From a virus, in IMG/VR virus record IMGVR_UViG_3300044634_001013, positions 5,702 to 69,701 of that record: a DNA stretch of 64,000 nucleotides. One strand, given 5' to 3'. A program made the translations under genes and the position numbers. Positions 3,510 to 22,031 of the stretch are shown one piece after another; the stretch's first letter is position 1; the number at the start of each line of letters is the position of its first letter. The notes below the pieces were generated by a model, which was not told where the DNA came from, made no database searches, and saw nothing but the letters and a program-made list of their open reading frames with translations.

Positions 3510-3519
3510 GGAGGGTTAA

Positions 3520-5130
3520 GTGGCAGATAAAAACTTTAAAGTAAAATCTGGTTTACAAGTTCCCTCTCTTACAACAGCGGGTCCTGTAACAACAGATTCA
3601 GCTGGTAACGTTACTTCTTCTGCTACCCTTCCAATTTCACAAGGAGGAACAGGCCAGACAACTGCTGGTAACGCATTAAATGCATTCCTTCCTCTTCAGA
3701 CTAGCCAAGACAATAAGTTTTTACAAACTAATGGCGTAACTACACAATGGACAACTCCTCAACAGCATACAGCAACAGACGGTGTGGTTGGGGCTAAAAT
3801 ATATAGTGGAACAGTTACTCCGTCTTCGCCAGTAATTGGAGATCTCTGGATTGATCAAACAACTGGAAATGGAATTCAATTAGTCAGGTGGCGTAAAACT
3901 GTTGCATCTGCAACAACAACCGTAACTGGACTAGATGATAATAACTTAACTTTATCTTATACCGCTGGAAATGAGCAGGTCTATATTAACGGTGTATTAA
4001 TTACAAGAGGCCAAGATTATACTGCTACAAATGGCACATCTGTTGTTTTAACACAGGCGGCGGAAATAGGAGATACATTAGAAATCTTTGGTAATCCCCT
4101 ATTCTCAGTAACAGATGCATATACACAATCACAGTCTAATTCATTATATGTTTCTAAGTCAGGACTGGATGCAGCTGGAAAAAATTATTTAATTAATGGA
4201 GGAATGGACGTATGGCAAAGAGGCACCTCTTTTGCAGTTACAGGATTAGGATATGCAGCTTATACAGTTGATAGGTGGACATGTTATGCAGGTGCCGCTG
4301 GAACAATCACACAAGATACTTCTTTATATGCACCAGGAACAAGATACGGACTTAGATTTACATCTACAGTATCATCAAGTGCACAGAATTGGTATCAAAT
4401 GGTTGAAACTTCAAATGCAATTGCCCTAGCAGGCCAAACTGTTTGTTTATCTCTTTATGCTGCAGGAACCACGGGAACTACAGGACACTATATGAATCTT
4501 CAGTATTCTAATAATGTCGACGCTAGTTTATTTGATGCTGGTTGGACAAATTGCAGCGGCACAACGGTATCCTATCCAGCAATGACTGGAACAATGCAAA
4601 GACATATCGCTACATTTGTAGTTCCAAATACCGCAAAAAGTTTACGTGTACAGTGGACAACTGGTTTATTAACTAATGCACAATTTCAAACTATTGGTGG
4701 ATTTCAATTAGAATTAGGATCAGTTGCAACACCGTTTTCTCGTGCAGGTGGAGATATTCAGGGAGAACTTGCAAAATGCCAAAGATACTTTTATACTTTG
4801 CCCTATAATTACAATGCTGAAAGAGCAAATCCCTATACTGATTTTTTAATTATGAATACTGCAGACCAAACTGGATGGGCTAGAGGCGTGGTTCAGTTTC
4901 CAGTTACAATGAGAACATCTCCTACGTTACAAGCGCCAACAGCGGCAAATTATTGGATATTAGGATCGGCTGGTGTATTATCTGTTACATCAATAGCAAT
5001 TGATAATATGACAAACGCATCAATGGCTGTTGTAAATGCTTATAGGACTGGTATGTCAACTGGAACAACTTATTTTTTAAGGTTTGCAGGAAACGTAACA
5101 GATTATTTAAGATTTTCGGCGGAGTTATAA
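3520..5130 (+). CDS. Fibre cassette 1 slot A: DK.FKVK-type adaptor fibre with CBM-like domain and C-terminal AEL domain
   Basis: GTG start after GGAGG; MADKNFKVK; GDLWID motif; INGVL...DYTA domain; KN..ING..WQRG...QLELGS.AT...ELAKCQRY...FSAEL. Confidence 0.8.
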   Translation: MADKNFKVKSGLQVPSLTTAGPVTTDSAGNVTSSATLPISQGGTGQTTAGNALNAFLPLQTSQDNKFLQTNGVTTQWTTPQQHTATDGVVGAKIYSGTVTPSSPVIGDLWIDQTTGNGIQLVRWRKTVASATTTVTGLDDNNLTLSYTAGNEQVYINGVLITRGQDYTATNGTSVVLTQAAEIGDTLEIFGNPLFSVTDAYTQSQSNSLYVSKSGLDAAGKNYLINGGMDVWQRGTSFAVTGLGYAAYTVDRWTCYAGAAGTITQDTSLYAPGTRYGLRFTSTVSSSAQNWYQMVETSNAIALAGQTVCLSLYAAGTTGTTGHYMNLQYSNNVDASLFDAGWTNCSGTTVSYPAMTGTMQRHIATFVVPNTAKSLRVQWTTGLLTNAQFQTIGGFQLELGSVATPFSRAGGDIQGELAKCQRYFYTLPYNYNAERANPYTDFLIMNTADQTGWARGVVQFPVTMRTSPTLQAPTAANYWILGSAGVLSVTSIAIDNMTNASMAVVNAYRTGMSTGTTYFLRFAGNVTDYLRFSAEL

Positions 5131-5139
5131 GGGAGAACC

Positions 5140-6171
5140 ATGACAAGAGCTAGAGATAATGCATTTAACCCGTTTAATAATCAAGTTGCTGGCAAGAATG
5201 CAGTAATTAATGGTGGAATGGATATTTGGCAACGTGGAACGACTTTTGCAGGCAATGGAGCATTTGCAAGTTCATTTACAGCTGATAGGTGGCAAGTTTA
5301 TAGAGGTGGTGCTTCTGGAGCAAGTACTGCTACTAGAGGTGCTTCAGATCTTCCAGGTTTCAAATATTTTATTCGTGTTCAACGACCTGCTGGAGATACA
5401 ACAACAACCTACCTAGGCTTATGGCAATCATTGGAAAGCGCAAACTCGTATGTCTACGCTGGCAAGACAGTAACTCTTTCCTTTTATGCACGTGCTGGTT
5501 CTGGAATGACTAATTCTTTTGGGCTAGGTGTTGCTTTATACAGTGGAACTGGAATAGACGAGCCGTGGTACTCGCACACTGGCTCAACGACTGTTGGATC
5601 TAGCAACTTTACTTTAACAACAACTGGTGGAATAGTAAATGGCTGGCAACGTTTTAGTGTTACTGGAAATGTTCCTTCTAACTCCAATGAACTTGGCATT
5701 ACTTTTGGGTATAATCCGACTGCTAGTACAGCATCTTCTACAGACTACTATGATATTACTGGTGTTCAATTAGAATTAGGCTCAACACCAACTGTATTTT
5801 CTCGTGCAGGTGGTACAATTGGAGGAGAGCTTGCGCTTTGCCAAAGATATTATTATAGAGTTATAGGAACAAACTACACTGCTATAGGATCTGGATTTTG
5901 TTTTAATGCTACAAATTTTAGAACAGTTATTAACTTTCCAACATTTATGAGGTCTGCTCCAGGAGTAGCATACTCAGGATCCCTAGTTGCAAATATTAAT
6001 GGTGGTAATGTTATACCAACAGGAATTAATGGAGTATTTAATTCTACAGGATACGGATGCTCATGCTTATTTGTAGACTGGGCAGTATCTGGACAGGCTG
6101 CTGGATATAATGGAGCTTTTTATACTCAAAACAGTTCATTAAACTATGTTGAATTTTCAGCGGAGTTATAG
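5140..6171 (+). CDS. Fibre cassette 1 slot B: MTRARD-type receptor-binding protein (CBM-like + AEL domain)
   Basis: N-terminus MTRARD; WQRG/DRW/VTLSF/QLELGS/CQRYY/FSAEL motifs. Confidence 0.8.
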   Translation: MTRARDNAFNPFNNQVAGKNAVINGGMDIWQRGTTFAGNGAFASSFTADRWQVYRGGASGASTATRGASDLPGFKYFIRVQRPAGDTTTTYLGLWQSLESANSYVYAGKTVTLSFYARAGSGMTNSFGLGVALYSGTGIDEPWYSHTGSTTVGSSNFTLTTTGGIVNGWQRFSVTGNVPSNSNELGITFGYNPTASTASSTDYYDITGVQLELGSTPTVFSRAGGTIGGELALCQRYYYRVIGTNYTAIGSGFCFNATNFRTVINFPTFMRSAPGVAYSGSLVANINGGNVIPTGINGVFNSTGYGCSCLFVDWAVSGQAAGYNGAFYTQNSSLNYVEFSAEL

Positions 6172-6181
6172 GAGGAAATAA

Positions 6182-7447
6182 ATGGCAGTAAAAAGATGGA
6201 ATGGAACGGCATGGGAAGTCTATGCTGGTGCTGACCTAGCTCCCGTCAAAGTTACCGACGGCAGAGTAGGTAAAACTACATTCATTGGTGCTACTTCTCC
6301 TACAGGACAAGTTGATGGAGATATTTGGATTGATCAAGATACAACTACAAACGCAGTTGTTCCAACAGCATTAACAACAAAAGGCGATATATTTGCAGCT
6401 ACTGGCAATGCTGCATATACAAGATTTGCGGCGGGTAATAATGGAGAATCATTATATGCAGATTCATCAACTAGTACAGGATTAAGATGGCAAGGTGATT
6501 TTAATACTGGAAAGAATAAGATTCTAAATGGAGATTTTGGAATTTGGCAAAGAGGGACAAGTTTTTCAAATGTGGCAGGTTATACAGCAGATAGATGGTA
6601 TATAACTTATTCTACACCACCTACAACTCACAGTATTACAAGAGAAACATTTACTCCTGGATCAGCACCAGTTGCTGGATACGAAGGTCAATACTTTTTA
6701 AGAAGAACTACAACAACTCTAGGAAGCAATAACGATGCTTATTTTGGAACAGCTATAGAAGATGTAAGAACTTTAGCAGGACAAACAGTAACACTTTCTT
6801 TCTGGGCCAAAGCAAGTTCATCAGTATCACTTTCACCAGCATTTAATCAAATGTTTGGAACTGGAGGTTCTACCAACGTTGCTACCGTTTTGCCAGTATT
6901 TAGCGTAACAACATCCTGGCAAAGATATTCTGGTACTGTTACAATACCTTCAGTTTCTGGCAAAACAATCGGAACGGGTAGTTATTTAAATCCATATCTT
7001 GGGTATACTCCAGTATCTGGATTGTCTTTAGATTTATGGGGATTTCAATTAGAAGCAGGAAGTGTTGCTACCCCATTCACAACAAATACTGCAAACCCTC
7101 AACAGGAACTTGCCGCATGTCAGAGATATTTTCAAATAATGAGTGGTCCAGGATCTGGAGTAATTGGTTCAAAAAATAATGGAACTGTTACATATTTTAT
7201 TGTGCCTCTTAAAGTAAACATGAGAGCCGCTCCAAGTATGACGAGTTCAGCAGTCGGCGAACTAGCTTTGTCAGCATTAAATGGGTCTACTACGTACCCA
7301 GCTACTAGTTTTTCAACTAATAGAAGCTCACCATGGTCGGCTTCTTTTGGATTAACACAGGCAACATCAGATGGTTCAGCTGGAAGCGCTGGAATCTTAC
7401 TAATTGATTCAGGTAGCGGCTGGGTAGCATTTTCGGCAGAGTTATAA
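6182..7447 (+). CDS. Fibre cassette 1 slot C: receptor-binding protein (CBM-like + AEL domain)
   Basis: MAVKRWNGTAW N-terminus, GDIWIDQD motif, TKGD module, NGDF..WQRG/IEDVR/CQRYF/FSAEL. Confidence 0.8.
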   Translation: MAVKRWNGTAWEVYAGADLAPVKVTDGRVGKTTFIGATSPTGQVDGDIWIDQDTTTNAVVPTALTTKGDIFAATGNAAYTRFAAGNNGESLYADSSTSTGLRWQGDFNTGKNKILNGDFGIWQRGTSFSNVAGYTADRWYITYSTPPTTHSITRETFTPGSAPVAGYEGQYFLRRTTTTLGSNNDAYFGTAIEDVRTLAGQTVTLSFWAKASSSVSLSPAFNQMFGTGGSTNVATVLPVFSVTTSWQRYSGTVTIPSVSGKTIGTGSYLNPYLGYTPVSGLSLDLWGFQLEAGSVATPFTTNTANPQQELAACQRYFQIMSGPGSGVIGSKNNGTVTYFIVPLKVNMRAAPSMTSSAVGELALSALNGSTTYPATSFSTNRSSPWSASFGLTQATSDGSAGSAGILLIDSGSGWVAFSAEL

Positions 7448-7458
7448 GGAGAATATAA

Positions 7459-8808
7459 ATGGCAATTAAAAGATGGAACGGAAGTACAAGTCAGTGGGAA
7501 TTAGTAGGTACCCCAGGGACCGCCACTCCTGCCGCAATTGGTGCTGCTACGCTAGCATCTACTGGCAACACTTTCCTTGGTGTACAAACGATTACTTCTG
7601 CATCTGAATGGCCTTTAATTTCTAGATTTACAAACCCAACATCAACACATAGAAATCACATATTATTACAAAGATCTAATAATAATGCTGCAGTCACATC
7701 AGGGTTTGGCTTGGGCGGAATTGCCATGTCAGGACATGACGGAACAAATTATGGATTAGGATGGAACGGTGGAGCAGAAATAACAGCATACGCTTCACAA
7801 ACATGGACTCCCTCTGCAAGAGGAACATCGTTAGCATTTTCAACTACTCCAGATAATAGTACGACTATATTAGAAAGAATGCGTATTCAGCAAGGTGGAG
7901 ATGTAATATTAACAAACCAGCCGTTTGATGGATTAAGATACTTTGACATATATAACACAAGTTCTGGAAACTCAGCTGGAACAATTATTAGATTAATTAC
8001 AAATAACGCAGCCAACAGTGCAGTAACATCAGTAGATATGGTTAAATACAGAACAGGCGGATTTGTTATAAATAATAGTGATGGATTTACATCATTTAAT
8101 ACTGCAGGCGGAGAAAGAATGCGTATTTTAAGCAGTGGTGCAGTTGTTGTTGGGCACACAGCTTTATTAAATAATGAGGCATTTGGAGTTAGAACAAATG
8201 TTAATATTCAAAATATTTGGTCAGATTCTACTGATCCAAACTATTCCACCGTATCATTTGGAAATAGAATTACACGAGCAAATACATCAGCATACACATT
8301 TTTACAAAATTGGAGCGGCGCAGGTTCTGATACTGAGCATTATTTACGTGGAGATGGACAAGCTTATGCAGACGGATCCTGGAATGGTGGAGGCGCTGAC
8401 TACGCTGAATATTTTGAGTGGGTAGACGGAAATCCAAATAATGAAGACAGAAGAGGTTATTCAGTTTCACTAATAAATGATAAAATTAAGATTGCTGAAG
8501 AAGGAGACGCTGTATTTGGAGTTGTGTCTGGAAACCCTTCAGTAGTTGGAGATGATGCTCCAATGAAGTGGGCGGGGAAGTACCTAAAGGATGACTTTGG
8601 CTCATATATCCGTGATGAAGATGGATATAGAGTATTAAATCCTGAATATGATGAAGAAGCAGAATATGTTAGTCGTGAAAGCAGACCAGAGTGGTCTACA
8701 ATTGGCCTAATGGGTAAACTTCGTTTACGTAAGGGACAAATTGTTTCACCAAGTTGGATTAAGATGAAAGACATTTCGGCAGAAGTCGAAGAATGGCTAG
8801 TTAAATAA
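7459..8808 (+). CDS. Fibre cassette 1 slot D: fibre with C-terminal peptidase G2-type intramolecular chaperone domain
   Basis: ERMRI fibre repeats; C-terminal GADYAEYFEWVDGNPNNEDRRG...GVVS...YLKDDFG...LNPEYD...RPEW..IGLMGKL. Confidence 0.8.
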   Translation: MAIKRWNGSTSQWELVGTPGTATPAAIGAATLASTGNTFLGVQTITSASEWPLISRFTNPTSTHRNHILLQRSNNNAAVTSGFGLGGIAMSGHDGTNYGLGWNGGAEITAYASQTWTPSARGTSLAFSTTPDNSTTILERMRIQQGGDVILTNQPFDGLRYFDIYNTSSGNSAGTIIRLITNNAANSAVTSVDMVKYRTGGFVINNSDGFTSFNTAGGERMRILSSGAVVVGHTALLNNEAFGVRTNVNIQNIWSDSTDPNYSTVSFGNRITRANTSAYTFLQNWSGAGSDTEHYLRGDGQAYADGSWNGGGADYAEYFEWVDGNPNNEDRRGYSVSLINDKIKIAEEGDAVFGVVSGNPSVVGDDAPMKWAGKYLKDDFGSYIRDEDGYRVLNPEYDEEAEYVSRESRPEWSTIGLMGKLRLRKGQIVSPSWIKMKDISAEVEEWLVK

Positions 8809-8818
8809 GGAGAATAAA

Positions 8819-9034
8819 ATGACAGAAGAAACAACATTCGTAATGCCAGAGTTTGTAGATAACTCAGATTATAAGATTAATACTACAGATTTTGGATCAA
8901 CAATTGTAAGAACAGATGAAGATGGTAAAGTATGGTGGATTCCTACTGATCCCGCTAATTCTGATTATGCAAGATATCTTCGTTGGGTTGAAGCGGGTAA
9001 TACTGCAGAAGCCTATGTAGCACCAACAGAGTAA
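8819..9034 (+). CDS. Small fibre-assembly chaperone-like protein (cassette 1 slot E)
   Basis: AGGAG SD; WIPTDPANSDYARYLRWVEAG motif typical of small proteins after fibre genes. Confidence 0.7.
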   Translation: MTEETTFVMPEFVDNSDYKINTTDFGSTIVRTDEDGKVWWIPTDPANSDYARYLRWVEAGNTAEAYVAPTE

Positions 9035-9049
9035 TTAGCATACCTTAAA

Positions 9050-9058
9050 TGGTAAAAT
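9050..9058 (+). promoter_or_regulatory. Extended -10 promoter (TGgTAAAAT) at the start of cassette 2
   Basis: TG-n-TAAAAT in the 33-bp intergenic gap, same style as other promoters in the window. Confidence 0.6.
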
Positions 9059-9067
9059 AGGAGTATC

Positions 9068-10966
9068 ATGGCAGATAAGAATTTTAAGGTAAAAAAGAAT
9101 ATCCAGGTTACAGACTTGGCCGTTGCTGGCCCAGTTACTGTAGACTCATCTGGTGTTCTTGCCTCATCTTCTGCTCTGCCAGTAAATTTGGGCGGAACAG
9201 GGCAAACAAGTGCATCAGCTGCATTTGATGCCCTTCTTCCAACTCAAACAAATAATGCTAATAAGCTTCTAGGAACAGATGGTACATCTGCATCTTGGGT
9301 GTCTCCAGGAATTGCATATCAGACTTCCGCCCCAGATAATCCAGTTACTGGACAATTGTGGGTGGACTCTGATGAGACTGGTGATTCACTAGATCCATAT
9401 ATTATCCGTAGAAAAACAATTACAGCAACTGCTGGACAAACCGTATTTACTACAGATGTAGTATTTACAGACGGATATGAGCAAATTTATTATAATGGTG
9501 TATTACTTGTAAGAACAACTGACTATACAACAAGCGGCGGAACCAACACAGTTACCTTGCTTCAAGGGGCATCAGCAGGAGATACAGTTGAAATTATTTC
9601 ATCTACTCCGATTAATTTAGTAAATAATGCTACATTAAATGCAAATACATTTATTGGAGCTCAAACGATTGAAAACAATCTTTCCTTTAGAACTCCAAAT
9701 AATGGAATTATAACTGGAGGAACAAGTGTTCAAAATGGATTAAATGGAGATTTTTTGCTTATTCAAAGATCTTCTGCAGGTGTAGATGCTGGAATACATT
9801 TTAGAGGTGGTAGTGGTGGAGCAATTGATTGGTCTATATATAATAAAGGAACTACCAACAATTTAGTTTTTAGAAAAGATGATCAGGGAGAACCTTTAGT
9901 GATAACAGATGGGGGTTTAGTTGGAATAGGATATTCCGCTCCAAACTCTCCACTAGAAGTAAGATCTACAAGTAGGGCCTTTGATTCTTTTGGAACAATA
10001 TTGGCGGCATCAAATGACTTTGGAATAAATAATGGCGGATCAATATCTTTGGGCGGAGTATTTACATCTGATAATAATCAAACAAATACAACAGCTTATG
10101 CTCAAGTATCTGGAAGAAAGCTAAACAGTACATCTGGAGATTATGCTGGATACATGGCATTTGCAACTAGAATTCATACAGGAGCTTTAACAGAAAGAAT
10201 GCGTATTACGCATGATGGCGGAGTATTAATTGGAAAAACCTCAAACTTATATGCAACATTAGATATAAATGGATCATTCCATGCATCTTCAAACTTTAAT
10301 GGAAATGTTCCAGGATATGGAGATGGCCTAACAATAGCTCAAAATGTTATTAACGGTGCCGCAGAAATTACTTACTCTCATGGAAATCCGTTCTTTGCCG
10401 CAAATGGTGGACATAGATTTATTCAAAAAACTGGCGCATCAACAGCAAGAACTCTTATGTATATGCGTGGAGATGGATTTGTTGGAATTGGAAAAGATAA
10501 TCCAAGCAATAAGCTAGATGTAGATGGAAATGTTACGGCTAATGGTTTTTATGGCCCTTTGCTTGGTGGAGTAAATGTAACAACAGCAGCAGCTAATACA
10601 GTTTTTGCTGCTAATACAGATACAAAAATTGCAAATCTTGCACCACTTGGAGACGGCCTTTTCGCATTAACAGTAACCTGGGGTTATGGAGATAATAATG
10701 CTGGCGGACAATTGTATTGGGCCACATCATTTGGCGGAATAGTAGGACTTATTTCAAATGGTGCTGGAGGATACTTTAATGGATCACCAGCAAATCAACT
10801 TACAATGTCAGCAACACAACACCATAGAAATGCATCAACCCTACCAACATTCTGGCTAAAGAGCGATACAACAAATGGTTCTTACGGAAGTTTGTCTTTA
10901 TATATTAGATTTCCAGAAGTTACAAAAATTGCTGATGTCTCAGTTTTTGGAAAGAGGGTTGCATAA
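9068..10966 (+). CDS. Fibre cassette 2 slot A: DK.FKVK-type adaptor fibre with beta-rich shaft
   Basis: MADKNFKVKK; GQLWVDSD; YNGVLL...DYTT domain; VGIG...P...L.V shaft repeats; distinct C-terminal domain. Confidence 0.8.
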   Translation: MADKNFKVKKNIQVTDLAVAGPVTVDSSGVLASSSALPVNLGGTGQTSASAAFDALLPTQTNNANKLLGTDGTSASWVSPGIAYQTSAPDNPVTGQLWVDSDETGDSLDPYIIRRKTITATAGQTVFTTDVVFTDGYEQIYYNGVLLVRTTDYTTSGGTNTVTLLQGASAGDTVEIISSTPINLVNNATLNANTFIGAQTIENNLSFRTPNNGIITGGTSVQNGLNGDFLLIQRSSAGVDAGIHFRGGSGGAIDWSIYNKGTTNNLVFRKDDQGEPLVITDGGLVGIGYSAPNSPLEVRSTSRAFDSFGTILAASNDFGINNGGSISLGGVFTSDNNQTNTTAYAQVSGRKLNSTSGDYAGYMAFATRIHTGALTERMRITHDGGVLIGKTSNLYATLDINGSFHASSNFNGNVPGYGDGLTIAQNVINGAAEITYSHGNPFFAANGGHRFIQKTGASTARTLMYMRGDGFVGIGKDNPSNKLDVDGNVTANGFYGPLLGGVNVTTAAANTVFAANTDTKIANLAPLGDGLFALTVTWGYGDNNAGGQLYWATSFGGIVGLISNGAGGYFNGSPANQLTMSATQHHRNASTLPTFWLKSDTTNGSYGSLSLYIRFPEVTKIADVSVFGKRVA

Positions 10967-11985
10967 TGAGTAGAGCTAGAGATTTAGGATCATTAATTAA
11001 TTCACCTGTTGCTGGAAAAAATGTAATAATTAACGGCAATTTTGATTTTTTTCAACGAGGATCTCTTTCAACAACAAATGCTGGATACGGCTTAGATAGA
11101 TGGTATCAATCATCAAGTGGATCAGGTACAAATGTCTCTGTAACTCAACAAACTACAGGAGTTCCAAATGGATCTCGTCATTGCATGAGAGTTACAATGA
11201 CAGGTGTTAATGGATATGGAAATCAGTATCAAGTAATTGAAACTTTAAATACAGTACCTTTACAAGGTAAAATGGTAACGCTTTCTGCAAAATTACGCAG
11301 AAGCTCAGGCTACGCTGGTAATATAACTATGACTTTAGAAAAATCTGCAACAGTTGATGCTACCATGGGTGGAACATGGACAACCTTGGCTGCTCAAGGA
11401 GTTTTAAACTCTTCTTTACCAACAGGTACTACATCCTCTGACTGGTACAGTTTGCAATTTTCTGTATTTGTTCCTAACGATGGAACTGCAAATTCTTTAA
11501 AAATTGGTTTTTCTCAATCTCAAACAGAATCAAACTGCTATTGGGAAGTTTCACAAGTTCAAGTAGAGGCAGGATCTTCTGCTACTACATTTTCTCGTGC
11601 AGGCGGAGATATTCAAGGAGAGCTTGCTAAATGTCAAAGATATTACTATAGAGATACTTTAGAAAAACACCTAACTCATGTTAGAGATACTAACTTATGG
11701 TTTATAACAAAAACATTTCCAGTAAGAATGAGATCTGTAGTATCTTTTTCTCATAACTTAACTACAAAAGTTACACCAGGAACATTCCCAGGAACTGCAG
11801 GACAAATAGGAATATATTCAAATGGTTGGGTTGCTCAAAACGCAACATCTTTAAGCTGTTCCTCAGATGGAGGAAGTAATGATCATGGATCATTTTATAT
11901 AGTAGGATTTAACGGAACGCTAGGTCAAGTTGGATCTATTCAAAGCAACGGTATATCTTATTTTGAGTGGAATGCGGAGTTATAG
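10966..11985 (+). CDS. Fibre cassette 2 slot B: MSRARD-type receptor-binding protein (CBM-like + AEL domain)
   Basis: TAATG coupling; MSRARDL; FSRAGGDIQGELAKCQRYY; ends WNAEL. Confidence 0.8.
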   Translation: MSRARDLGSLINSPVAGKNVIINGNFDFFQRGSLSTTNAGYGLDRWYQSSSGSGTNVSVTQQTTGVPNGSRHCMRVTMTGVNGYGNQYQVIETLNTVPLQGKMVTLSAKLRRSSGYAGNITMTLEKSATVDATMGGTWTTLAAQGVLNSSLPTGTTSSDWYSLQFSVFVPNDGTANSLKIGFSQSQTESNCYWEVSQVQVEAGSSATTFSRAGGDIQGELAKCQRYYYRDTLEKHLTHVRDTNLWFITKTFPVRMRSVVSFSHNLTTKVTPGTFPGTAGQIGIYSNGWVAQNATSLSCSSDGGSNDHGSFYIVGFNGTLGQVGSIQSNGISYFEWNAEL

Positions 11986-11993
11986 GAGATAAT

Positions 11994-12812
11994 ATGGCAA
12001 AGAAACTTAAGATATATAATGGCTCTTCATGGGAAGATGTTACGTTTGCTATTACCCCACCGTCCACAAATGTAACTAATTCATTTAGTACTAATCAGGT
12101 AATTGATGTTTCTACTTCAGTAGCCGCCCTTAGAGTAACACAGCGGGGTGCAGGAGAAGCACTAAGAGTAGAAGATGAAACAAACCCAGACTCCACACCA
12201 TTTGTAATCACTTCTGCAGGAAATGTTGGAATTGGTGTTTCAAGTCCTAGTGGAGTATTAGATATTAACGGAAGACAAAATATTCGTGGCAATGCAGTAT
12301 TAAGTTTTCAAAATACTGGAAATACTGCAGGTTTCGATGTAGGATTGCTTGGCGGAACTTCAGACCCAATTGGATATATTTTTAATAGAGCTAACTCAGA
12401 CATTGCGTTTGGAACAAATAATGCTGAAACAATGAGATTAACCGCTTCAGGTAATTTAGGTATAAACGTAGCCAATGCAACTTATAGAATTCAAACATTT
12501 AGCGCATTGTCTGCTTCTGTAGGATCACAATCATTAATCTTTCAAACACAAGTTAATAATGGAAACAATGATTATTTTAGACTTTATCAAGAAAGAACAA
12601 TTGCAGTAACATCCTGGGGAGGCTCAGATTGGATTTTAAGAAGACAAGTTGATGGAACACCAATGGGTGGATTTAGATGGGCAGCTGCAGATTGGAACGT
12701 TAGGGCAATATATGGAGTTCCAACTGACCCATCAGTTAGAACATCTCACATATCAACCTCTGCTCCAACAGGTGGAATAGACGGAGATATTTGGTTAGTT
12801 TATACGGCGTGA
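11994..12812 (+). CDS. Fibre cassette 2 slot C: short fibre ending in a GDIW docking motif
   Basis: Start moved to ATG 11994 after AGGAG; MAKKLKIYNGSSW; GNVGIG shaft repeats; C-terminus SAPTGGIDGDIWLVYTA. Confidence 0.75.
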   Translation: MAKKLKIYNGSSWEDVTFAITPPSTNVTNSFSTNQVIDVSTSVAALRVTQRGAGEALRVEDETNPDSTPFVITSAGNVGIGVSSPSGVLDINGRQNIRGNAVLSFQNTGNTAGFDVGLLGGTSDPIGYIFNRANSDIAFGTNNAETMRLTASGNLGINVANATYRIQTFSALSASVGSQSLIFQTQVNNGNNDYFRLYQERTIAVTSWGGSDWILRRQVDGTPMGGFRWAAADWNVRAIYGVPTDPSVRTSHISTSAPTGGIDGDIWLVYTA

Positions 12813-12816
12813 TATT

Positions 12817-13704
12817 ATGACTAAACACGTTAAAGTAAATGGAGTATGGAAAGACGTAACTCAACAATATGTTAAAGTTGGCGGTTCATGGAAAACTGTA
12901 TCTTCTGGCTGGATTAAAGTAGCAGGAGTTTGGAAACAGTTTTATTCTTCTATACCAACAGTTTCTGTTACATATTTAGTTGTTGCAGGTGCAGGTGCAG
13001 GTGGATCTTCTGCAGGTGGTGGCGGCGGCGCTGGAGGAATGGTTGAGGGAACATATAGTTTGACATCTACTGGAACATATCCAGTAGTTGTAGGTGCTGG
13101 GGGTTCAGCAACCCCAACGAATGGTCCTGGAAACTCTGGATTTAATTCATCAGTGTTTGGAATTAATGGTATCGGTGGCGGAGGAGCATCTGCTTGGGGT
13201 CAAGGAAATGCACAAAGCGGTGGATCTGGTGGTGGCGGCGGCGCTGGAGGAAATTATAATGGCACAGGAGTTCAGTTTGGTGGAGCATCAACACAAACTT
13301 CTCCATCTGGTGGAACTGGTTATGGAAATGCTGGATCAAACGGAAACTCAAGTGGAAGCGGTAGCGCAGGTGGCGGCGGCGGAGCTGGAAGTGCTGGAGG
13401 ACTTCCAGCAGCGGGATCTGGAAGAGCAAATTCTATTTCTGGTTCATCAGTAACATATTCATCTGGAGGAACTGGAGGTTTTACTGGAATTGTTTCTGGA
13501 ACATATCCTAGTGGTGCTGCAAATACGGGAAATGGTGGAACTGGGTCAACAGACAATAAAACAGCAGGAGCTGGTGGTTCTGGTATAGTCATAATTAGAT
13601 ATACAACTGGATCAATGACAGCAACTGGCGGAACAGTAACAACAAGCGGAGGAAATACAATTCATACATTTACGGCTAACGGAAACTTTGTGAGGACAGC
13701 ATAA
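12817..13704 (+). CDS. Fibre cassette 2 slot D: glycine-rich adhesin-like protein
   Basis: Three N-terminal KVxGxWK repeats, then YLVVAGAG...GGGGG...GSGIVIIRY...GG...HTFT glycine-rich domain. Confidence 0.75.
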   Translation: MTKHVKVNGVWKDVTQQYVKVGGSWKTVSSGWIKVAGVWKQFYSSIPTVSVTYLVVAGAGAGGSSAGGGGGAGGMVEGTYSLTSTGTYPVVVGAGGSATPTNGPGNSGFNSSVFGINGIGGGGASAWGQGNAQSGGSGGGGGAGGNYNGTGVQFGGASTQTSPSGGTGYGNAGSNGNSSGSGSAGGGGGAGSAGGLPAAGSGRANSISGSSVTYSSGGTGGFTGIVSGTYPSGAANTGNGGTGSTDNKTAGAGGSGIVIIRYTTGSMTATGGTVTTSGGNTIHTFTANGNFVRTA

Positions 13705-14048
13705 TGGCACACTGGGCAGAAATTGATGAAAATAATATTGTTACTCGTGTAACTGTTGGAGACAATAATGATCCAGATGAAGGGTATCAGTGGCTTGTAG
13801 ATAATTTGGGCGGAACTTGGATTAAGACTTCCTACAATGCAGCAACAAATGGTTTTAGAAAAAACTACGCAGGTATTGGTTATACATGGGATGAGGATAG
13901 AGATGCCTTTATTCCGCCTCAGAGATTTCAGTCATGGAAGTTAGACGAAGAAACATGTATCTGGGTACCCTCAAAACCTTATCCAGAAGACGGAAAAATA
14001 TATGTATGGGATGAAGATGCTCAAAAATGGCTGGCAGATCTAGAATAA
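13704..14048 (+). CDS. Small acidic partner/chaperone of the glycine-rich protein (cassette 2 slot E)
   Basis: MAHWAEIDENNIV...TSYN...RKNYAGIGYTWD..RDAFIPP, a family commonly adjacent to Gly-rich phage proteins; TAATG coupling. Confidence 0.7.
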   Translation: MAHWAEIDENNIVTRVTVGDNNDPDEGYQWLVDNLGGTWIKTSYNAATNGFRKNYAGIGYTWDEDRDAFIPPQRFQSWKLDEETCIWVPSKPYPEDGKIYVWDEDAQKWLADLE

Positions 14049-14053
14049 AGGAA

Positions 14054-14062
14054 TGCTATAAT
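14054..14062 (+). promoter_or_regulatory. Extended -10 promoter (TGcTATAAT) at the start of cassette 3
   Basis: Perfect TGnTATAAT in an intergenic gap; GAATGCTATAATTA is identical at 26131-26144. Confidence 0.7.
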
Positions 14063-14096
14063 TAAGTCATACCAATTAGGGGATATGTGAACCAGA

Positions 14097-16061
14097 TTGT
14101 CAGATAAAGATTTTAAAGTAAAGAATAAGCTTGTAGTCAATGGACTTACTGGCGGTGCTGGCCCGCTTATTGCCAACTCAAATAAAGAAATAGATTCAGT
14201 AGCATTCCTAACTACATTGCAGGGCGGAACAGGAACAACAACATCTCCTTCTGCTGGTCAAGTATTATATTCAGCAGGCGGAACATCATATAACCCAACA
14301 GCCATAAATACATTAGATGTAAAGGGTGCCACATACTCTGCAGATGCCCCATCTAGCCCAGTTATTGGGCAAATCTGGGTGGAGTCAGATACAACCTCAG
14401 ATTCATTTGATCCAAATATTATTCGCAGAAAGTCATTTACTGCAACTGCAGCACAAACTACATTTACAACAGATGTTCCATTTATTCAGGGATATGAGCA
14501 GGTGTTCTTTAATGGAATGCTACTTGTTCGTAATAATGACTATACAACTACAAATGATACTACTGTTGTTTTAACAACAGGGGCGGCAGTAAACGATGTA
14601 GTAGAAGTAGTAACAATAACTAATTTAAATTCTATTAACACCGTCACAACAACTGGTGCAAATACAATAACATCAACTAGTGCATCTACAATACCATTAA
14701 CAATACAAGGCGCAGCATCTCAAACAGCTGACTTGCTTAGACTTACAAACAGCTCTGGACAAATTTTAGCAAACCATAACGGATCAACTTTAAATTTAAA
14801 AACTAATACATTCCCAGCTCTTTCATTAACAAGATATGGAATAGATCAGGCAAGCGCAGGTATAGATTTTATAAAATCAAATAGTGCTACTTTAGATACT
14901 GATGCTGCCGTAGCTTTAGATAGCAAACTGTTTGATATGAGGTCTGTTGGTTATGATGGATCAGCATACGGAACTGTTGCAACATCAATATCTGGTTGGG
15001 TAGACGGTGCAGTAAGTAGTGGATCTATTCCAGGAAGATTAGTTTTTGCTACGTCTGGCGTAGAAAGACTTCGGATTAATTCTAGTGGAAATATAAGCTC
15101 ATTATTCAATCAATCATTTGCTAACAGCTCATATGCTGGAAAGAATGTAATAATTAATGGAGCGATGGATATCTGGCAAAGAGGTACTTCTTTTCCAAGC
15201 GGAGTCGGTCTTGGATCTGCAACAGTTTATTCTGCAGATAGATGGCACTGGTACAGAGGCGGAAATGATTCAGGAGCAACTTTAACTAGACAGTCTGCTG
15301 GACTTGCTGGATTTCAATATTGTATTAGAATGCAAAGAAACTCTGGAAATACTTCTACTCAAGCATTAGGATTAAGATATACTGCAGAAACTGCAGACTC
15401 TGTAAGATTTGCAGGAAAACAAGTTACGTTATCATTCTGGGCGAGAAAAGGTGCAAACTATAGCGGATCAAGCAATACATTTAGAGCAACAGTTGCAACT
15501 GGAACTGGAACAGATCAAGTAGTTCATTCATTTACTGGATTTGCTTATATCGTAGATCAAAATGTAACTCTTACAGATAACTGGCAAAGATTTACTCTTA
15601 CTGGAACTGCCGCATCTAATGTTACTCAAATTGGTTTAGAAATGTTCCATACACCAACAGGTACTGCAGGGGCAAATGATTTTATGGAAATTACTGGAAT
15701 TCAATTAGAAGAAGGTTCAATAGCAACACCTTTTTCTCGTGCAACAGGAACTACTCAAGGTGAACTTGCTGCATGCCAAAGATATTTCCAAATACTTGGA
15801 GACAATATCTATGAATTAATTTATGGCGGCTACATGACTTCAGGAACTGTTGCCTACATATCTTTTCCATTCCCAGTAACTATGAGAACTACTCCAGTCG
15901 GAACATTAGTTGGAGGTTGGGCAGTATTTAATACAGGACAACCAGTAATTCAAGCAACATTTCCACATACAATTTCTTTAAGAGCAACATCAACTGCTAC
16001 AGGACAATTTTATTTTCATAGTAATACAACATATTATTTAACAATGAATGCGGAGCTGTAA
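14097..16061 (+). CDS. Fibre cassette 3 slot A: DK.FKVK-type adaptor fibre with CBM-like + AEL domain
   Basis: TTG start; MSDKDFKVK; GQIWVESD; FNGMLL...DYTT; ELAACQRYF; ends MNAEL. Confidence 0.8.
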   Translation: MSDKDFKVKNKLVVNGLTGGAGPLIANSNKEIDSVAFLTTLQGGTGTTTSPSAGQVLYSAGGTSYNPTAINTLDVKGATYSADAPSSPVIGQIWVESDTTSDSFDPNIIRRKSFTATAAQTTFTTDVPFIQGYEQVFFNGMLLVRNNDYTTTNDTTVVLTTGAAVNDVVEVVTITNLNSINTVTTTGANTITSTSASTIPLTIQGAASQTADLLRLTNSSGQILANHNGSTLNLKTNTFPALSLTRYGIDQASAGIDFIKSNSATLDTDAAVALDSKLFDMRSVGYDGSAYGTVATSISGWVDGAVSSGSIPGRLVFATSGVERLRINSSGNISSLFNQSFANSSYAGKNVIINGAMDIWQRGTSFPSGVGLGSATVYSADRWHWYRGGNDSGATLTRQSAGLAGFQYCIRMQRNSGNTSTQALGLRYTAETADSVRFAGKQVTLSFWARKGANYSGSSNTFRATVATGTGTDQVVHSFTGFAYIVDQNVTLTDNWQRFTLTGTAASNVTQIGLEMFHTPTGTAGANDFMEITGIQLEEGSIATPFSRATGTTQGELAACQRYFQILGDNIYELIYGGYMTSGTVAYISFPFPVTMRTTPVGTLVGGWAVFNTGQPVIQATFPHTISLRATSTATGQFYFHSNTTYYLTMNAEL

Positions 16062-16062
16062 A

Positions 16063-16224
16063 ATGACAATAATATATGAACATATAAATGAAGATCTAGA
16101 AAATATGATTATAGAGCATATTAGCAGAACAAATGAAGACGGTTCGGTATCTTGGATTCCAATAGAGCCAAAGAATTCTGAATATCAAGAGTATTTAAGG
16201 TGGGTGGAGGAAAATAATGTCTAG
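16063..16224 (+). CDS. Unlisted 53-aa chaperone-like ORF, paralogue of 8819-9034
   Basis: Hand translation MTIIYEHINEDLENMIIEHISRTNEDGSVSWIPIEPKNSEYQEYLRWVEENNV; shares RTxEDG...WIP..P.NS.Y..YLRWVE. Confidence 0.85.
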   Translation: MTIIYEHINEDLENMIIEHISRTNEDGSVSWIPIEPKNSEYQEYLRWVEENNV

Positions 16225-17248
16225 AGTTAGAGATCTAGCAAGTATATTAACAGCATCATCTAGTATGGCTACTGATACTGAAGTTTCTGCTGTATCCGCT
16301 CAAATTCCTACAAATGTCGCGGGTAAGAATTTTGTAATTAATGGCGGAATGGATATAGCCCAGAGAGGAACATCTTTAACTGGAGTAAATGGTTACTCGT
16401 TAGATAGATGGCTAGTTAACGGATTTGGAACAAATTCAAATATATCAGTAGGTCAATTTTTAATATCTACATTAATTCCAGGTCTTAGATATTATATGAG
16501 AGTTGCTCCTACTACATCAAATAATCAAAATTTTTGGATTAGCCAATCTTTAGAAACTCATGAAGTTATAAGGCTTGCTGGTAAACAAGTAACATTATCT
16601 TTCTATCACAGAATGCCGTTTGCATTTACTGGAACATGGAGTGCGGCTGTATCGTTTTCTACTGGCACAGATGCTAATCTGCATTATCCAGCTTCATCCA
16701 CAGGAATTTTTGCTGAAAATTTAAGTGGCACAGCGGCATGGCAAAGGTATACAAAAACATTTACAGTTCCTGCAAATGCAACTTCCCTTGCTATACAGTT
16801 TCAAACAACAAACAATGTTTTAAACACATCTATGTTTGATTTAACAGGAGTTCAATTAGAAATTGGATCTGTTGCTACAGATTTTTCTAGAGCAGGTGGA
16901 GATATTCAAGGAGAACTTTCTAAATGCCAAAGATATTACTGGCGATATGGTGGAGAAAATGTCTATCAATTTTTTGGTAACGGACTTGCCCCATCAACTA
17001 GCGGAGTGTATTATTTTATAAATAATCCAGTTCCAATGAGAGTTGGACCAACATCAATTGAGTTTGCTTCATTGGCAGCCTACGACGGACCAAATGCAAT
17101 TGTAGTCAGCAATCTTATTTTAGATAGACCAACAAGAAACGGAGCATTCTTGTTTGCAACTGTATCTGGTACAACTCAATATAGACCTTACATGATAACA
17201 ACAAATAATAATGCTAACGGATACTTGGCATTTAGTGCGGAATTATAG
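16217..17248 (+). CDS. Fibre cassette 3 slot B: MSRVRD-type receptor-binding protein (CBM-like + AEL domain)
   Basis: GGAGG SD; MSRVRDL; FSRAGGDIQGELSKCQRYY; FSAEL. Confidence 0.8.
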   Translation: MSRVRDLASILTASSSMATDTEVSAVSAQIPTNVAGKNFVINGGMDIAQRGTSLTGVNGYSLDRWLVNGFGTNSNISVGQFLISTLIPGLRYYMRVAPTTSNNQNFWISQSLETHEVIRLAGKQVTLSFYHRMPFAFTGTWSAAVSFSTGTDANLHYPASSTGIFAENLSGTAAWQRYTKTFTVPANATSLAIQFQTTNNVLNTSMFDLTGVQLEIGSVATDFSRAGGDIQGELSKCQRYYWRYGGENVYQFFGNGLAPSTSGVYYFINNPVPMRVGPTSIEFASLAAYDGPNAIVVSNLILDRPTRNGAFLFATVSGTTQYRPYMITTNNNANGYLAFSAEL

Positions 17249-17258
17249 GAGATAAATA

Positions 17259-18440
17259 ATGGGTAAAAAAATAAGAGTATGGGATGGAACAGCGTGGCAA
17301 GATGTAGCACCATCATTGCCTTATACCGCCATTCATTCTGCACAAGCATCAATGCCATTGACTGGCGTAGATGGGCAAGTTTGGCTAGACACAGATGGAA
17401 CTTTGGCGGGACAAGATTTTGTTCCATTAGCTGGTGGAACAATGACAGGAAATTTAAACACTCCTTCTATAAATAGTGGACCAATTGTTGGACGTAATAA
17501 TTTATTAAATGGTGATTTTTCAATTTGGCAGCGTGGCACATCATTTACTGGCACAAGTAATTCAAATGTATTTACCGCCGACAGATGGATAGTTCAAAGT
17601 CAAGGAGTAAATAGCTCTGTATCAAAACAAGTCTTGTCTGGTGGAGAAATTGCTGGATATGATTCAGAGTCTTATATTAGAATTTCAAATGCTTCAGCTG
17701 GATCTGCAAATACATTATTTATACAAAGAATAGAAGATGTTAGAAGTATGGCAGGTCAAAATGTCACTGTTTCATTTTGGGCAAAAGCTTCTACTGCAAC
17801 TACAATATATGTAAGATCTGATCAAGATTTTGGTTCTGGCGGAAGTTCTAGAGTTGCTAATGGAGGTTCTGGAGTTTCAGTTTCTACTACATGGCAAAGA
17901 AGGTCTGCGACATTTGCATTATCTTCAATTTCTGGAAAAACGATTGGGCCTTCATCCTATTTAGACTTTTTTATATACTGGGCAAATACATCCGCACAGA
18001 CTGTAGATTTATGGGGAATTCAAATAGAATTAGGCAGTCAAGCAACTCCATTTCATACTGCTACTCCAAATCAACAAACAGAATTAGCAGCATGTCAGAG
18101 ATATTATTATAGAACATCTGGAACAACATACACTCCATTAACTGTAGGAGGATATACTCAAAGCACTACTGATTTAGCTTGGTGGGTCCCGCTTCCAGTT
18201 TCAATGCGTGTAGCGCCAACGTCTCTAGATTTTTCAGGATCTGGAGCTATAGCATTTAGAAGTGCTAACAACGGATCTGGATACACTATGGGGAATTTGA
18301 CCTTTGCATCTTCGCTATCAACACCGACATTAGCTCGTGGTGGAGGATCAATCAGTAGCGGAACATGGGTAGCCTTTCACTCAGGCTACCTTGAAGGAAA
18401 TAACGGACCATGCTTTCTAGGATTTTCAGCGGAATTATAA
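17259..18440 (+). CDS. Fibre cassette 3 slot C: receptor-binding protein (CBM-like + AEL domain)
   Basis: MGKKIRVWDGTAW; GQVWLDTD; IEDVR; ELAACQRYY; FSAEL. Confidence 0.8.
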   Translation: MGKKIRVWDGTAWQDVAPSLPYTAIHSAQASMPLTGVDGQVWLDTDGTLAGQDFVPLAGGTMTGNLNTPSINSGPIVGRNNLLNGDFSIWQRGTSFTGTSNSNVFTADRWIVQSQGVNSSVSKQVLSGGEIAGYDSESYIRISNASAGSANTLFIQRIEDVRSMAGQNVTVSFWAKASTATTIYVRSDQDFGSGGSSRVANGGSGVSVSTTWQRRSATFALSSISGKTIGPSSYLDFFIYWANTSAQTVDLWGIQIELGSQATPFHTATPNQQTELAACQRYYYRTSGTTYTPLTVGGYTQSTTDLAWWVPLPVSMRVAPTSLDFSGSGAIAFRSANNGSGYTMGNLTFASSLSTPTLARGGGSISSGTWVAFHSGYLEGNNGPCFLGFSAEL

Positions 18441-18450
18441 GGAGATATAA

Positions 18451-19665
18451 ATGCCAACATTAGGAAATACACCAAGACCAGCTTATGTATATGATACAGA
18501 GACAGATACTTGGGTTCCCGTCGGAGTAGGAGCACATACTCATAGCGATATACCAAATACATTGGTAGATGCTAAGGGAGATCTTATTACCGCCACCGCC
18601 GATAACGTTCCTGCCCGTTTAGCAAAAGGAGCGGACGGAACAGTATTAGTTGCAGACTCCACAACTTCAACAGGATTAGCTTGGCAGCCATATGCTCCAC
18701 AAGTTGTTGCAGGAAAAAATAAAATAATCAATGGAGATTTTTCAGTTTGGCAACGTGGATCTTCTTTTACAAGCCCATCAGATAATGTATTTACAGCAGA
18801 TCGCTGGAGACAAAATGGTGACGGAACAAAGGGCACAAGAATTTGGAGTAGACAAGCATTTACTCCAGGAGAAATTCCTGGATATGAATCTCAATACTAT
18901 ATGAGATTTCAGCAATCTGTGGCTGGTTCTGGAGCAACATATCAAAATATATTAATTCAGCCAATTGAAGATGTTAGAACGTTGGCTGGAAAAACTGTAA
19001 CTTTCTCATTTTGGGCAAAAGCAGACACAACTGGAAGAACTATTGCCCCTATAGCATATAGATTTTATGGAACAGGAAGCCCTTCTTCCGCAGAAGGAAT
19101 AAATCCAGCACCAATAACATTAACTACATCATGGCAAAGATATTCCTCAACATTTTTTATTCCGTCTTTAGCTGGCAAAACAATATCTTCATCTGATCAT
19201 ACTTTGCAAATGATTTTAGCTCCGACATTTAATATTGCTCAAACAATTGATATTTGGGGGATTCAATTAGAAGAAGGATCAGTAGCAACCCCATTTAGCA
19301 CAGCAACAGGAACTATTCAGGGAGAGCTCGCTGCATGCCAAAGATATTATTATAAAATAGGTCCATCCGATGGATCTTCTTCATCATTTTTATATTCACC
19401 ATTGGGAATGGCTAATGCTACTACTCAAGTAATTGTTACATTTCCTTTCCCTCAAATAATGCGTGTTAAGCCAACATCTATTGAGTATACAAATCCAAGA
19501 GTTTCTGATGGGGCAAACGTATCAACTGCAACATCTTTAATTTTGGGAGATGCTTCATCAAGCCTGGGCTCTGTTAATGTTAATGGATCTGGATTTACAG
19601 TATTTAGAAATTATTGGATGATGAATAACAGTAACTCATCCCTTGCGTTTAACGCAGAACTATAA
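18451..19665 (+). CDS. Fibre cassette 3 slot D: receptor-binding protein (CBM-like + AEL domain)
   Basis: PAYVYDTETDTW N-terminal motif; AKGD module; IEDVR; ELAACQRYY; FNAEL. Confidence 0.8.
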   Translation: MPTLGNTPRPAYVYDTETDTWVPVGVGAHTHSDIPNTLVDAKGDLITATADNVPARLAKGADGTVLVADSTTSTGLAWQPYAPQVVAGKNKIINGDFSVWQRGSSFTSPSDNVFTADRWRQNGDGTKGTRIWSRQAFTPGEIPGYESQYYMRFQQSVAGSGATYQNILIQPIEDVRTLAGKTVTFSFWAKADTTGRTIAPIAYRFYGTGSPSSAEGINPAPITLTTSWQRYSSTFFIPSLAGKTISSSDHTLQMILAPTFNIAQTIDIWGIQLEEGSVATPFSTATGTIQGELAACQRYYYKIGPSDGSSSSFLYSPLGMANATTQVIVTFPFPQIMRVKPTSIEYTNPRVSDGANVSTATSLILGDASSSLGSVNVNGSGFTVFRNYWMMNNSNSSLAFNAEL

Positions 19666-19676
19666 GGAGAAATAAA

Positions 19677-19841
19677 ATGCTAAACTATGAAAGAATAACA
19701 ACTACAAACATGGATGAAACTACAACAGATCATATTATTATAGATCGTGGAAATGATGAGTTTACTTCGTTTCCCGCCGTTGATGGAAACCCTGCATATG
19801 AAGCTTTTAAGTTACAACTAGAAGCAGAAGCAGCGGAATAA
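19677..19841 (+). CDS. Unlisted 54-aa chaperone-like ORF (cassette 3 slot E)
   Basis: AAGGAG SD; hand translation MLNYERITTTNMDETTTDHIIIDRGNDEFTSFPAVDGNPAYEAFKLQLEAEAAE; fills the gap exactly. Confidence 0.8.
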   Translation: MLNYERITTTNMDETTTDHIIIDRGNDEFTSFPAVDGNPAYEAFKLQLEAEAAE

Positions 19842-21686: not shown

Positions 21687-22031
21687 ATGGATATTAACAA
21701 GGTTAATTCAAAAGTTTTGGAAGAAGAAACAAGACTAGGTATTTATGTCTGGGAAATGCCAGATGGTAGATGGATTGGAGACGATGATGGTAACTTTCTT
21801 TCTATCACGTCGACAAAAGGAAATAGATCCAAAGTCGATGCTCTGGCTAGAGAAGTTCGCTCATATGGTATATATGAGGGCGGGCCTAAATTTCTTTCAG
21901 GAAGAAGAAAAATTGACGACGAAGAGTTCTCATACCAACAGTCAAGATTGAACCTAGGCCTTGTGCCAGATCCATTAGATATTGGAAGCTATAAAGACGA
22001 GATGAAGAACTTAAAGAATTTAAGGGGATAA
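21687..22031 (+). CDS. Hypothetical protein preceding the portal gene
   Basis: Clean ORF under its own promoter; GIYVWEMPDG...DDDGNFLSI. Confidence 0.7.
   Translation: MDINKVNSKVLEEETRLGIYVWEMPDGRWIGDDDGNFLSITSTKGNRSKVDALAREVRSYGIYEGGPKFLSGRRKIDDEEFSYQQSRLNLGLVPDPLDIGSYKDEMKNLKNLRG

Follow-up and report, generated by a model that had tools for sequence, protein, structure and literature searches.

The tailspikes TSP1–TSP4 of CBA120 and Vi01-like phages and proteins gp63.1–gp66 of phage G7C are reportedly assembled, through conserved N-terminal modules, into branched complexes of several receptor-binding proteins (RBPs), and their C-terminal specificity modules are said to be exchanged by horizontal transfer; these are, reportedly, enzymatic tailspikes encoded as one set per genome without tandem iteration. 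Published accounts further describe phage phiKp24, with 14 receptor-binding fibres that are grouped by N-terminal length and one of which has only a short peptide at this end (PMC9700779), and the T5-like phage DT57C, with branched lateral tail fibres LtfA and LtfB (PMC4728585), where LtfB is attached through LtfA and a conserved N-terminus anchors the primary fibre (PMC10713586). Here we analysed a window of 64,000 nt, bases 5702–69701 of the 69.7-kb IMG/VR record IMGVR_UViG_3300044634_001013, which derives from an uncultured lake-water phage; positions given below are those of the window unless the genome, meaning the full record, is named. Thirteen fibre-like genes are clustered within 129–19665: a long fibre gene, T0, and twelve genes in three consecutive sets of slots A to D, each set also containing small genes (E). 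The locus probably encodes a multivalent receptor-binding array composed of docking adaptors and exchangeable, lectin-like heads.

Clustered receptor-binding genes, and proteins that join a conserved N-terminal anchor to a variable C-terminal module, are common to this locus and the branched multi-RBP systems. Many RBPs per phage are likewise encoded in the phiKp24/PhiK64-1/Menlow group, where graded N-terminal parts serve attachment and branching, and the phiKp24 fibre with the short peptide is comparable to the B-type genes described below (PMC9700779). The payloads differ, however: those of phiKp24 are depolymerase beta-helices with gp10-like docking, whereas the payloads here are heads resembling carbohydrate-binding modules (CBM) and no gp10-like domain was detected. 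An iterated A-B-C gene cassette is not described in the available part of the phiKp24 paper, and the backbone of the present record, with its tape measure and minor tail genes, is similar to that of Streptomyces phage Mildred21, unlike the phiKp24 group. DT57C, a long-tailed siphovirus with accessory polysaccharide fibres, offers a parallel in its primary fibre with a conserved N-terminus through which a second fibre is attached; it has, nevertheless, two such proteins, no known repeated cassette, and an attachment that is genetically supported, as against twelve proteins and a predicted attachment here. The sequence-only reading of this DNA had not recognised a described architecture, which was overstated, given that branched sets, and variable heads behind conserved N-terminal anchors, are on record for phiKp24 (PMC9700779) and DT57C (PMC10713586). 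The principle is thus known from phiKp24, CBA120 and DT57C, whereas the iterated A-B-C layout is new: a literature search, with supplements outside its scope, returned no description of it. The locus departs from the known systems in its lectin-like payloads, in the absence of a detectable gp10-like domain, in its position outside the tail module and in the tandem iteration of A-B-C.

The dominant repeat of the locus is an eightfold paralogous C-terminal head of ~320 aa ending in the residues AEL, rather than the N-terminal peptides. The AEL heads, carried by A1, B1, C1, B2, A3, B3, C3 and D3, are 27–41% identical and share 34 invariant columns, and a profile of the family recovers 8/8 of them in the phage's own genome; the B genes consist of this head preceded by merely 15–34 residues. 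No Pfam cut-off was reached by the heads (CBM_4_9 at 24.1–25.2 bits against a cut-off of 25.9), but phrog_4492, annotated as ‘tail fiber protein’, matches B1 and A1. An AlphaFold2 (AF2) model of B1, built on 31 sequences with a predicted local distance difference test (pLDDT) score of 81.9, comprises a jelly roll (~residues 20–215), one helix that coincides with the conserved ELAxCQRYY box, and another beta-sandwich. With this model, Foldseek returned 174 matches at E <= 0.001, led by 9b45, 4xup (CBM22), 3k4z and 1gui (CBM4), the nearest folds being those of the Pseudomonas phage Pa193 baseplate/tail-fibre complex, CBM22 and CBM4. The AEL head is hence predicted to adopt a CBM-like, jelly-roll carbohydrate-binding fold; the modelled pair of beta-sandwiches indicates that the depolymerase beta-helix is not the payload fold. 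The family is widespread, with 325 cultured-phage records matched by tblastn and 56,859 protein clusters at 50% identity matching the head at E <= 0.001. The best-listed cultured records carry the head at one or two places each, whereas eight copies lie within 16 kb here and 11 head-bearing open reading frames (ORFs) were found in one related contig (L013). Two separate stretches of many database proteins of ~550–650 aa (P0002–P0020) match the AEL profile, so that a single polypeptide may contain two heads in tandem.

The three consecutive gene sets that had been proposed are all present, on the + strand (Table 1). Six-frame translation of the window finds the A motif [MVL][AS]DK[ND]FKVK three times, only at the starts of A1, A2 and A3, and the B motif M[TS]R[AV]RD three times, only at those of B1, B2 and B3; the C hairpin motif, both as first worded and in a broadened form, matches C1, C2 and C3 only. 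These peptides were said to be all that defines the slots, and this part of the claim did not hold, because the homology of A and C is far longer: A1, A2 and A3 are homologous over ~200–290 aa (BLASTP E 2.5e-42, 1.4e-43 and 3.9e-23) and C1 and C3 along their full length (E 3.5e-72). The five-slot order A-B-C-D-E stands for the homologous A, B and C, whereas D and E are slots by position only. D1, D2 and D3 are mutually non-homologous, with only the N-terminus of D1 resembling C1 (E 1.4e-4), and the small E genes are unrelated except for E1 and the extra gene Ex, the latter interrupting cassette 3 and breaking the order. The sound repeat is therefore the A-B-C triad plus one fibre gene and a small gene. 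The D payloads do differ, as had been claimed, comprising a Peptidase_G2 intramolecular chaperone (IMC) domain in D1, Gly_rich_2 in D2 and, just below the Pfam cut-off, a CBM_4_9-like match in D3. By the Pfam threshold (residues 296–430, 119.1 bits against a cut-off of 25), D1 is predicted to carry a C-terminal autoproteolytic IMC domain of the Peptidase_G2/S74 type. No Pfam family was found in E1, E2, Ex or E3, and searches of the ESM Atlas with E1 and E2 returned only viral hypothetical clusters. The E genes, labelled chaperone-like in the sequence-only reading, are at most candidate partners of the kind that Tfa, gp38 or U are to their fibres. The lack of homology among the D and among the E genes of different cassettes could also be read as a historical pile-up of duplicated fibre genes without assembly logic, docking independently or not at all, in part decaying and owing their order to tandem duplication. 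Congruence of the A, B and C adaptors with a (1,(2,3)) history, which may be counted on the same side, gave no clear result with such short adaptors and a mosaic A adaptor. Yet 17/17 ORFs are intact and lie close together, joined at conserved junctions of stop codon, ribosome-binding site (RBS) and start codon, and together with the behaviour of the adaptors in relatives, described next, this makes the pile-up very unlikely.

Five independent metagenomic contigs that share the A adaptor (L009–L013) allow the cassette order to be followed. Four of them (L009–L012) keep the order T0-A-B-C-D-E-A-B-C(-D-E). The fifth, L013, keeps A-B-C-D but passes directly from an A1-type to an A3-type cassette, without an A2-type one, and has extra upstream units. 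Across these relatives, blocks of nucleotide identity coincide with junctions and 5′ adaptors, the adaptors being 75–94% identical while the heads diverge to 31–64% protein identity, and the proposal of fixed adaptors with swapped payloads is thereby borne out. The blocks shared with L009 (gene names with positions) are 1–4201 (to A1 codon 228, 90%), A1:533–B1:36, B1:336–C1:317, C1:417–D1:223, D1:310–A2:201 (94%) and B2:337–C2:81, and the heads lie outside all of them. A quick tree of 32 heads separates a C/D-type clade (Shimodaira–Hasegawa-like approximate likelihood ratio test, SH-aLRT, 97) from an A/B group and does not follow the slots: L009 has a head of the C/D-type clade in its A1 slot (97), and the head in the C1 slot of L012 clusters with the B1 and A3 heads of the window (94). 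T0 is variable in its middle (715–1168 aa in total among relatives) and conserved at both ends, its C-terminal ~190 aa jointly with the A1 adaptor; within it, five 39-nt tandem repeats at 2692–2925 each encode a 13-aa unit of the ELNILDGVTS type. Gain or loss of whole cassettes, also predicted from the sequence, is seen in L013 and in five large relatives with portals ~80% identical to that of the window phage, two of them rated complete, of which 2/5 have A-type adaptors. Near-identical pieces of the locus are present in lake-water sequencing runs from several studies; among the Logan contigs, which are short and of low depth, those of one run (X6) leave 14675–18009 without cover. Joints at head-start boxes in such data, for instance 4152>18706 and 18694>11008, were discounted, their sides being <=36 letters long and their depth 2–3.

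Besides T0, the locus encodes twelve fibre proteins in three paralogous cassettes, each with a short N-terminal adaptor (A, B or C, with that of D being C-like) and a C-terminal payload. We propose that the adaptors assign every protein a set position on the virion, with A as the main anchor into which B, C and D are plugged secondarily. The heads would bind different surface glycans reversibly, and their number may make adsorption broader or more robust where the host population is microdiverse. Fresh combinations might arise by recombination at conserved boxes, namely the head start (GKNxIINGxxDxWQRG), the mid-head helix and the junction of AEL, stop, RBS and ATG, and cassette number may shift through unequal exchange between cassettes. 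Seven junctions share an element of ~35–44 nt, which consists of the last head codons (AEL), the stop, an AGGAG RBS overlapping the stop context and the ATG.

A profile of the A adaptor detects 429 relatives in IMG/VR, and the best 79 A-profile loci of these, together with the loci collected earlier, gave a survey set of 169 loci and 2760 ORFs. This sample was chosen by A similarity and holds near-duplicates, a composition that counts against leaning on it, so that neighbour and payload counts are descriptive only: distinct neighbour pairs number 20 for A>B against 8 for B>A and 21 for B>C against 7 for C>B, and B-type starts (MTRARD...ATDTE) precede an AEL head in 15/43 distinct proteins and other payloads in 28/43. 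The 64 A-type adaptors found (55 distinct) form, in a quick tree, an A1-type clade of 18 rows and an A3-type clade of 16 rows, each with a support of 100, and a small A2-type group. Several A types co-reside in single loci, and the A paralogue clades appear, from this tree, to be old and co-resident. B-type starts and C-type hairpins recur in distant relatives on quite different payloads, and A is there often a stand-alone protein of ~240–330 aa; in four loci (L015, L018, L112 and L156) A, B and C adaptors are found on other payloads or as short separate ORFs. The recurrence of the same adaptor types with other payloads also argues against the pile-up of duplicated genes. Short A- or C-type adaptor ORFs in these loci end in a YGWRVG-like sequence and are overlapped by a payload ORF by 1–16 nt (L018 3270–5749; L112 16231–18452), and the same overlap occurs in L156 (14364–15607) and L015 (12617–15603); it could represent a split arrangement or a frameshift site. 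Judging from such adaptor ORFs followed by payload ORFs, heads could be supplied as separate polypeptides. Tentatively, A, B and C may be a portable plug standard across a very large uncultured freshwater lineage, in which each cassette would specify a single branched fibre with A as its stem and B, C and D plugged in. The number of cassettes (0 to >=3) would set fibre variety, and host range would be tuned both by this number and by head swapping; this broader proposal is possible rather than likely.

Expression signals bear on whether all heads would be displayed together. The extended -10-like box TGNTAWAAT occurs 14 times in the window, against 13.5 copies expected by chance, 13 of them on the + strand. 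Eight of these 13 fall within the 2.8% of the DNA that is intergenic, 7–46 nt before a start codon (positions 96, 9050, 14054, 21670, 26134, 41873, 53281 and 59097; binomial P ~4e-10), and precede T0, A2, A3, G and four later genes. The extended -10 promoters attributed to the second and third gene sets are therefore present as predicted promoters, and, since a box also precedes T0, cassette 1 probably shares the promoter of T0. This distribution fits three putative transcription units: T0 with cassette 1, cassette 2, and cassette 3 through F. A scan for sigma-70 -35/-10 pairs was not enriched (61 sites against 64.2 expected), with none in the two intergenic gaps; a perfect TTGACA-18-TATAAT, the sole 12-of-12 site in 3000–22100, lies at 21565–21594, inside the 3′ end of F and upstream of G and the portal gene. 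Three of the boxes (before A2, G and the gene at 41888) stand merely 7–10 nt from the start, a spacing that would yield nearly leaderless transcripts. Leaderless transcripts are common in Actinobacteria.

Separate promoter-like boxes before T0, A2 and A3, with the cassettes as separate transcription units, are also what one would expect if virions carried different subsets of the fibres, as bet-hedging or mosaic particles, instead of all twelve heads. Residues M1, K4, F6, K7, V8 and K9 of the start are invariant in 11 A adaptors of all paralogue types, and proteins with such a shared start would therefore compete for one docking site. We nevertheless regard this alternative display as unlikely: the apparent age of the A paralogue clades and their co-residence in many loci suggest non-redundant roles, and no invertible segment was found, all genes lying on one strand and inverted repeats being <=30 nt long. 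An invertible fibre switch of the Mu G or P1 C type was rejected as a candidate, with all genes on the + strand and only five inverted pairs of 24–30 nt at 70–83% complementarity. A diversity-generating retroelement of the BPP-1 Mtd type was likewise set aside, T0 having only the Mtd_N domain and the 69.7-kb record, which is rated 63% complete, giving no RVT_1 match; WhiB was likewise not found in this 63%-complete record.

As the 69.7-kb record is rated 63% complete, the genome would be near 110 kb, and the best explanation of the locus is that it serves a tailed lake-water phage of this size (~110 kb) as an accessory set of receptor-binding genes. The phage's capsid protein shares 57% identity with those of Streptomyces phages of ~130 kb, Mildred21 (Stanwilliamsviridae) among them. 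Megablast of 3000–20000 against cultured phages gave zero matches. The portal gene (22033–23613; Phage_portal E 6e-37), downstream of the array, is followed by genes for a protease/scaffold, the major capsid protein, a head–tail adaptor and an Ig-domain protein, then by a 2170-aa ORF at the Mildred21 tape-measure position and minor tail proteins, and further 3′ by DnaB helicase, primase and the DNA polymerase III alpha subunit. The order in Mildred21 (glycosyltransferase, ribonucleotide reductase, [endolysin], a ~580-aa and a ~112-aa protein, portal, protease, capsid, tape measure, minor tail proteins) is matched, except that ~22 kb of co-oriented fibre genes occupy the endolysin slot, so that the array occupies the space separating ribonucleotide reductase from the portal. 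The array begins before the window, with four small to medium fibre-like ORFs at genome positions 3172–5824, and has F as its right end. Behind the tail genes, at 50547–53277, lie genes for a radical SAM/SPASM protein, an N-acetylglucosamine-type glycosyltransferase and an NAD-dependent epimerase/dehydratase, and another glycosyltransferase-like ORF is found at genome positions 96–767.

Portal relatives are encoded by at least 598 contigs in IMG/VR. Among the 80 best of these (78–84% identical), F and G are kept beside the portal in nearly all (matches in 81 loci for F and in 80 for G), whereas an AEL head was found in 0/80 by a hidden Markov model (HMM) scan covering up to 10 kb upstream, the same scan that finds 8/8 in the phage's own genome. 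The five large relatives mentioned above likewise have an AEL head in 0/5, a result of a profile search whose empty answer carries little weight alone. With F and G kept and the array present or absent, the space between ribonucleotide reductase and F constitutes a variable island, and the fibre array appears, from these gene contents, to be one possible content of it. Three loci of portal relatives without a fibre array (L093, L100 and L090) have, ~2–7 kb upstream of F, runs of five to eight ORFs of ~200–310 aa, several with similar N-termini. Two others (L027 6529–7485 and L029 5744–7336) have no A-B-C but a D2-like gene just upstream of F, with three N-terminal hairpin repeats of the KIYNGSxW type.

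Several observations weigh against the array of docking adaptors and exchangeable heads. Both the presence of the products in the virion and the binding of adaptor to adaptor are predictions from sequence. A T4 gp10-like docking domain was not found by Pfam (E <= 0.1, 19 proteins scanned), and among 50,697 cultured-phage records none matched the A adaptor at >=80% coverage; the similarity seen there, to tail fibres of pelagiphages and roseophages, is confined to its Ig-like half, and a monomer model of the adaptor (pLDDT 57.5) was too poor for fold comparison. The order A-C-B also exists in one sub-lineage (nine A>C and seven C>B pairs), and the A-B-C order is lineage-specific, not universal. 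The small genes show an association with payload type, E1-like genes following an AEL gene in 20/24 distinct cases and E2-like genes a non-AEL gene in 37/37, but only 20/74 distinct AEL genes have an E1-like follower. At identical residues, the mid-head box shows no excess of synonymous-codon identity (0.52–0.62 against 0.53 overall), and recent exchange inside this genome is therefore not evident. The tail module, finally, begins only behind the tape measure gene at 30911, and the array lies outside it and beside head genes, so that a tail location of the array's products is assumed.

The last point opens the way to a different placement, in which the products would be fibres on the head or neck, akin to decorations or whiskers, or would in some other way lie outside the receptor set of the tail, and recognition would fall to the minor tail proteins past the tape measure. 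Consistent with this, the array is set between ribonucleotide reductase and F-G-portal, away from a tail module that has large proteins of its own (37905–49790, with minor tail/tail matches to phrog_10359 and phrog_9983), and the best PHROG match of D1 is a ‘pre-neck appendage protein’. On the other hand, the Mtd_N domain of T0 is the N-terminal part of a tropism protein of tail fibres, and homologues of the head from cultured phages (Puniceispirillum phage HMO-2011, cyanophages and Vibrio, Rhizobium and Stenotrophomonas phages) bear tail-fibre annotations; in the T5-like Vibrio phage D254, two small AEL-type genes lie directly 3′ of the long (L-shaped) fibre gene. A head or neck location consequently seems improbable to us, and, as such fibres could still be adhesins, it would alter the location more than the function.

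Table 1. Positions in the 64,000-nt window of the fibre genes, their small companions, the bordering genes and associated sequence signals.
Feature	Position	Strand	Evidence or remark
Extended -10-like box (TGNTAWAAT)	96..104	+	25 nt 5′ of T0; among 8 intergenic copies
T0, 1126-aa long fibre	129..3509	+	Mtd_N N-terminus, E 2.2e-11
A1, A-type adaptor (aa 1–~215) and AEL head (aa 217–536)	3520..5130	+	phrog_4492 E 7e-35
B1, 16-aa B-type N-terminal peptide and AEL head	5140..6171	+	phrog_4492 E 4e-44
C1, C-type hairpin N-terminus, linker and AEL head	6182..7447	+	CBM_4_9 E 2.3e-5
D1, C-like N-terminus, fibre shaft and predicted C-terminal Peptidase_G2 IMC domain	7459..8808	+	E 2.5e-34
E1, 71-aa protein, phrog_5784	8819..9034	+	PHROG match
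Extended -10-like box	9050..9058	+	10 nt 5′ of A2 start
A2, A-type adaptor and non-AEL fibre payload	9068..10966	+	BLASTP, PHROG
B2, B-type peptide and AEL head	10966..11985	+	BLASTP, head profile
C2, C-type hairpin N-terminus and non-AEL fibre payload	11994..12812	+	Homology, PHROG
D2, triple hairpin N-terminus and Gly_rich_2 domain	12817..13704	+	Gly_rich_2 E 4.9e-13
E2, 114-aa protein, phrog_7759	13704..14048	+	PHROG match
Extended -10-like box	14054..14062	+	35 nt 5′ of A3 start
A3, A-type adaptor (TTG start), shaft and AEL head	14097..16061	+	BLASTP, head profile
Ex, small E1-like ORF between A3 and B3	16063..16224 (possible start 16048)	+	64% to E1 over 33 aa
B3, long B-type N-terminal peptide and AEL head	16217..17248	+	BLASTP, head profile
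C3, C-type hairpin N-terminus and AEL head	17259..18440	+	BLASTP, head profile
D3, own N-terminus, linker common to T0 and C1, C/D-type AEL head	18451..19665	+	CBM_4_9-like E 4.9e-5
E3, 54-aa ORF	19677..19841	+	No family matched in Pfam and PHROG scans
F, 592-aa Laminin_G_3 protein, conserved right-hand border of the variable island	19846..21624	+	Pfam; matches in 81 loci
G, 114-aa conserved protein adjoining the portal	21687..22031	+	Matches in 80 loci
AEL-stop-AGGAG-ATG junctions	5103–5146, 6144–6187, 7420–7463, 11958–12001, 17221–17264, 18413–18456, 19645–19679	+	

The array illustrates a possible way for an abundant lineage of lake phages to cope with variable host surfaces, whereby docking front ends would stay the same as lectin-like heads change places and entire gene sets come and go. 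Profiles made from the three adaptor families (A, B and C) and the unnamed ~320-aa head could help to annotate receptor-binding genes in metagenomes, and the layout with fixed adaptors would provide a natural template for head-swap work once a host has been cultured.

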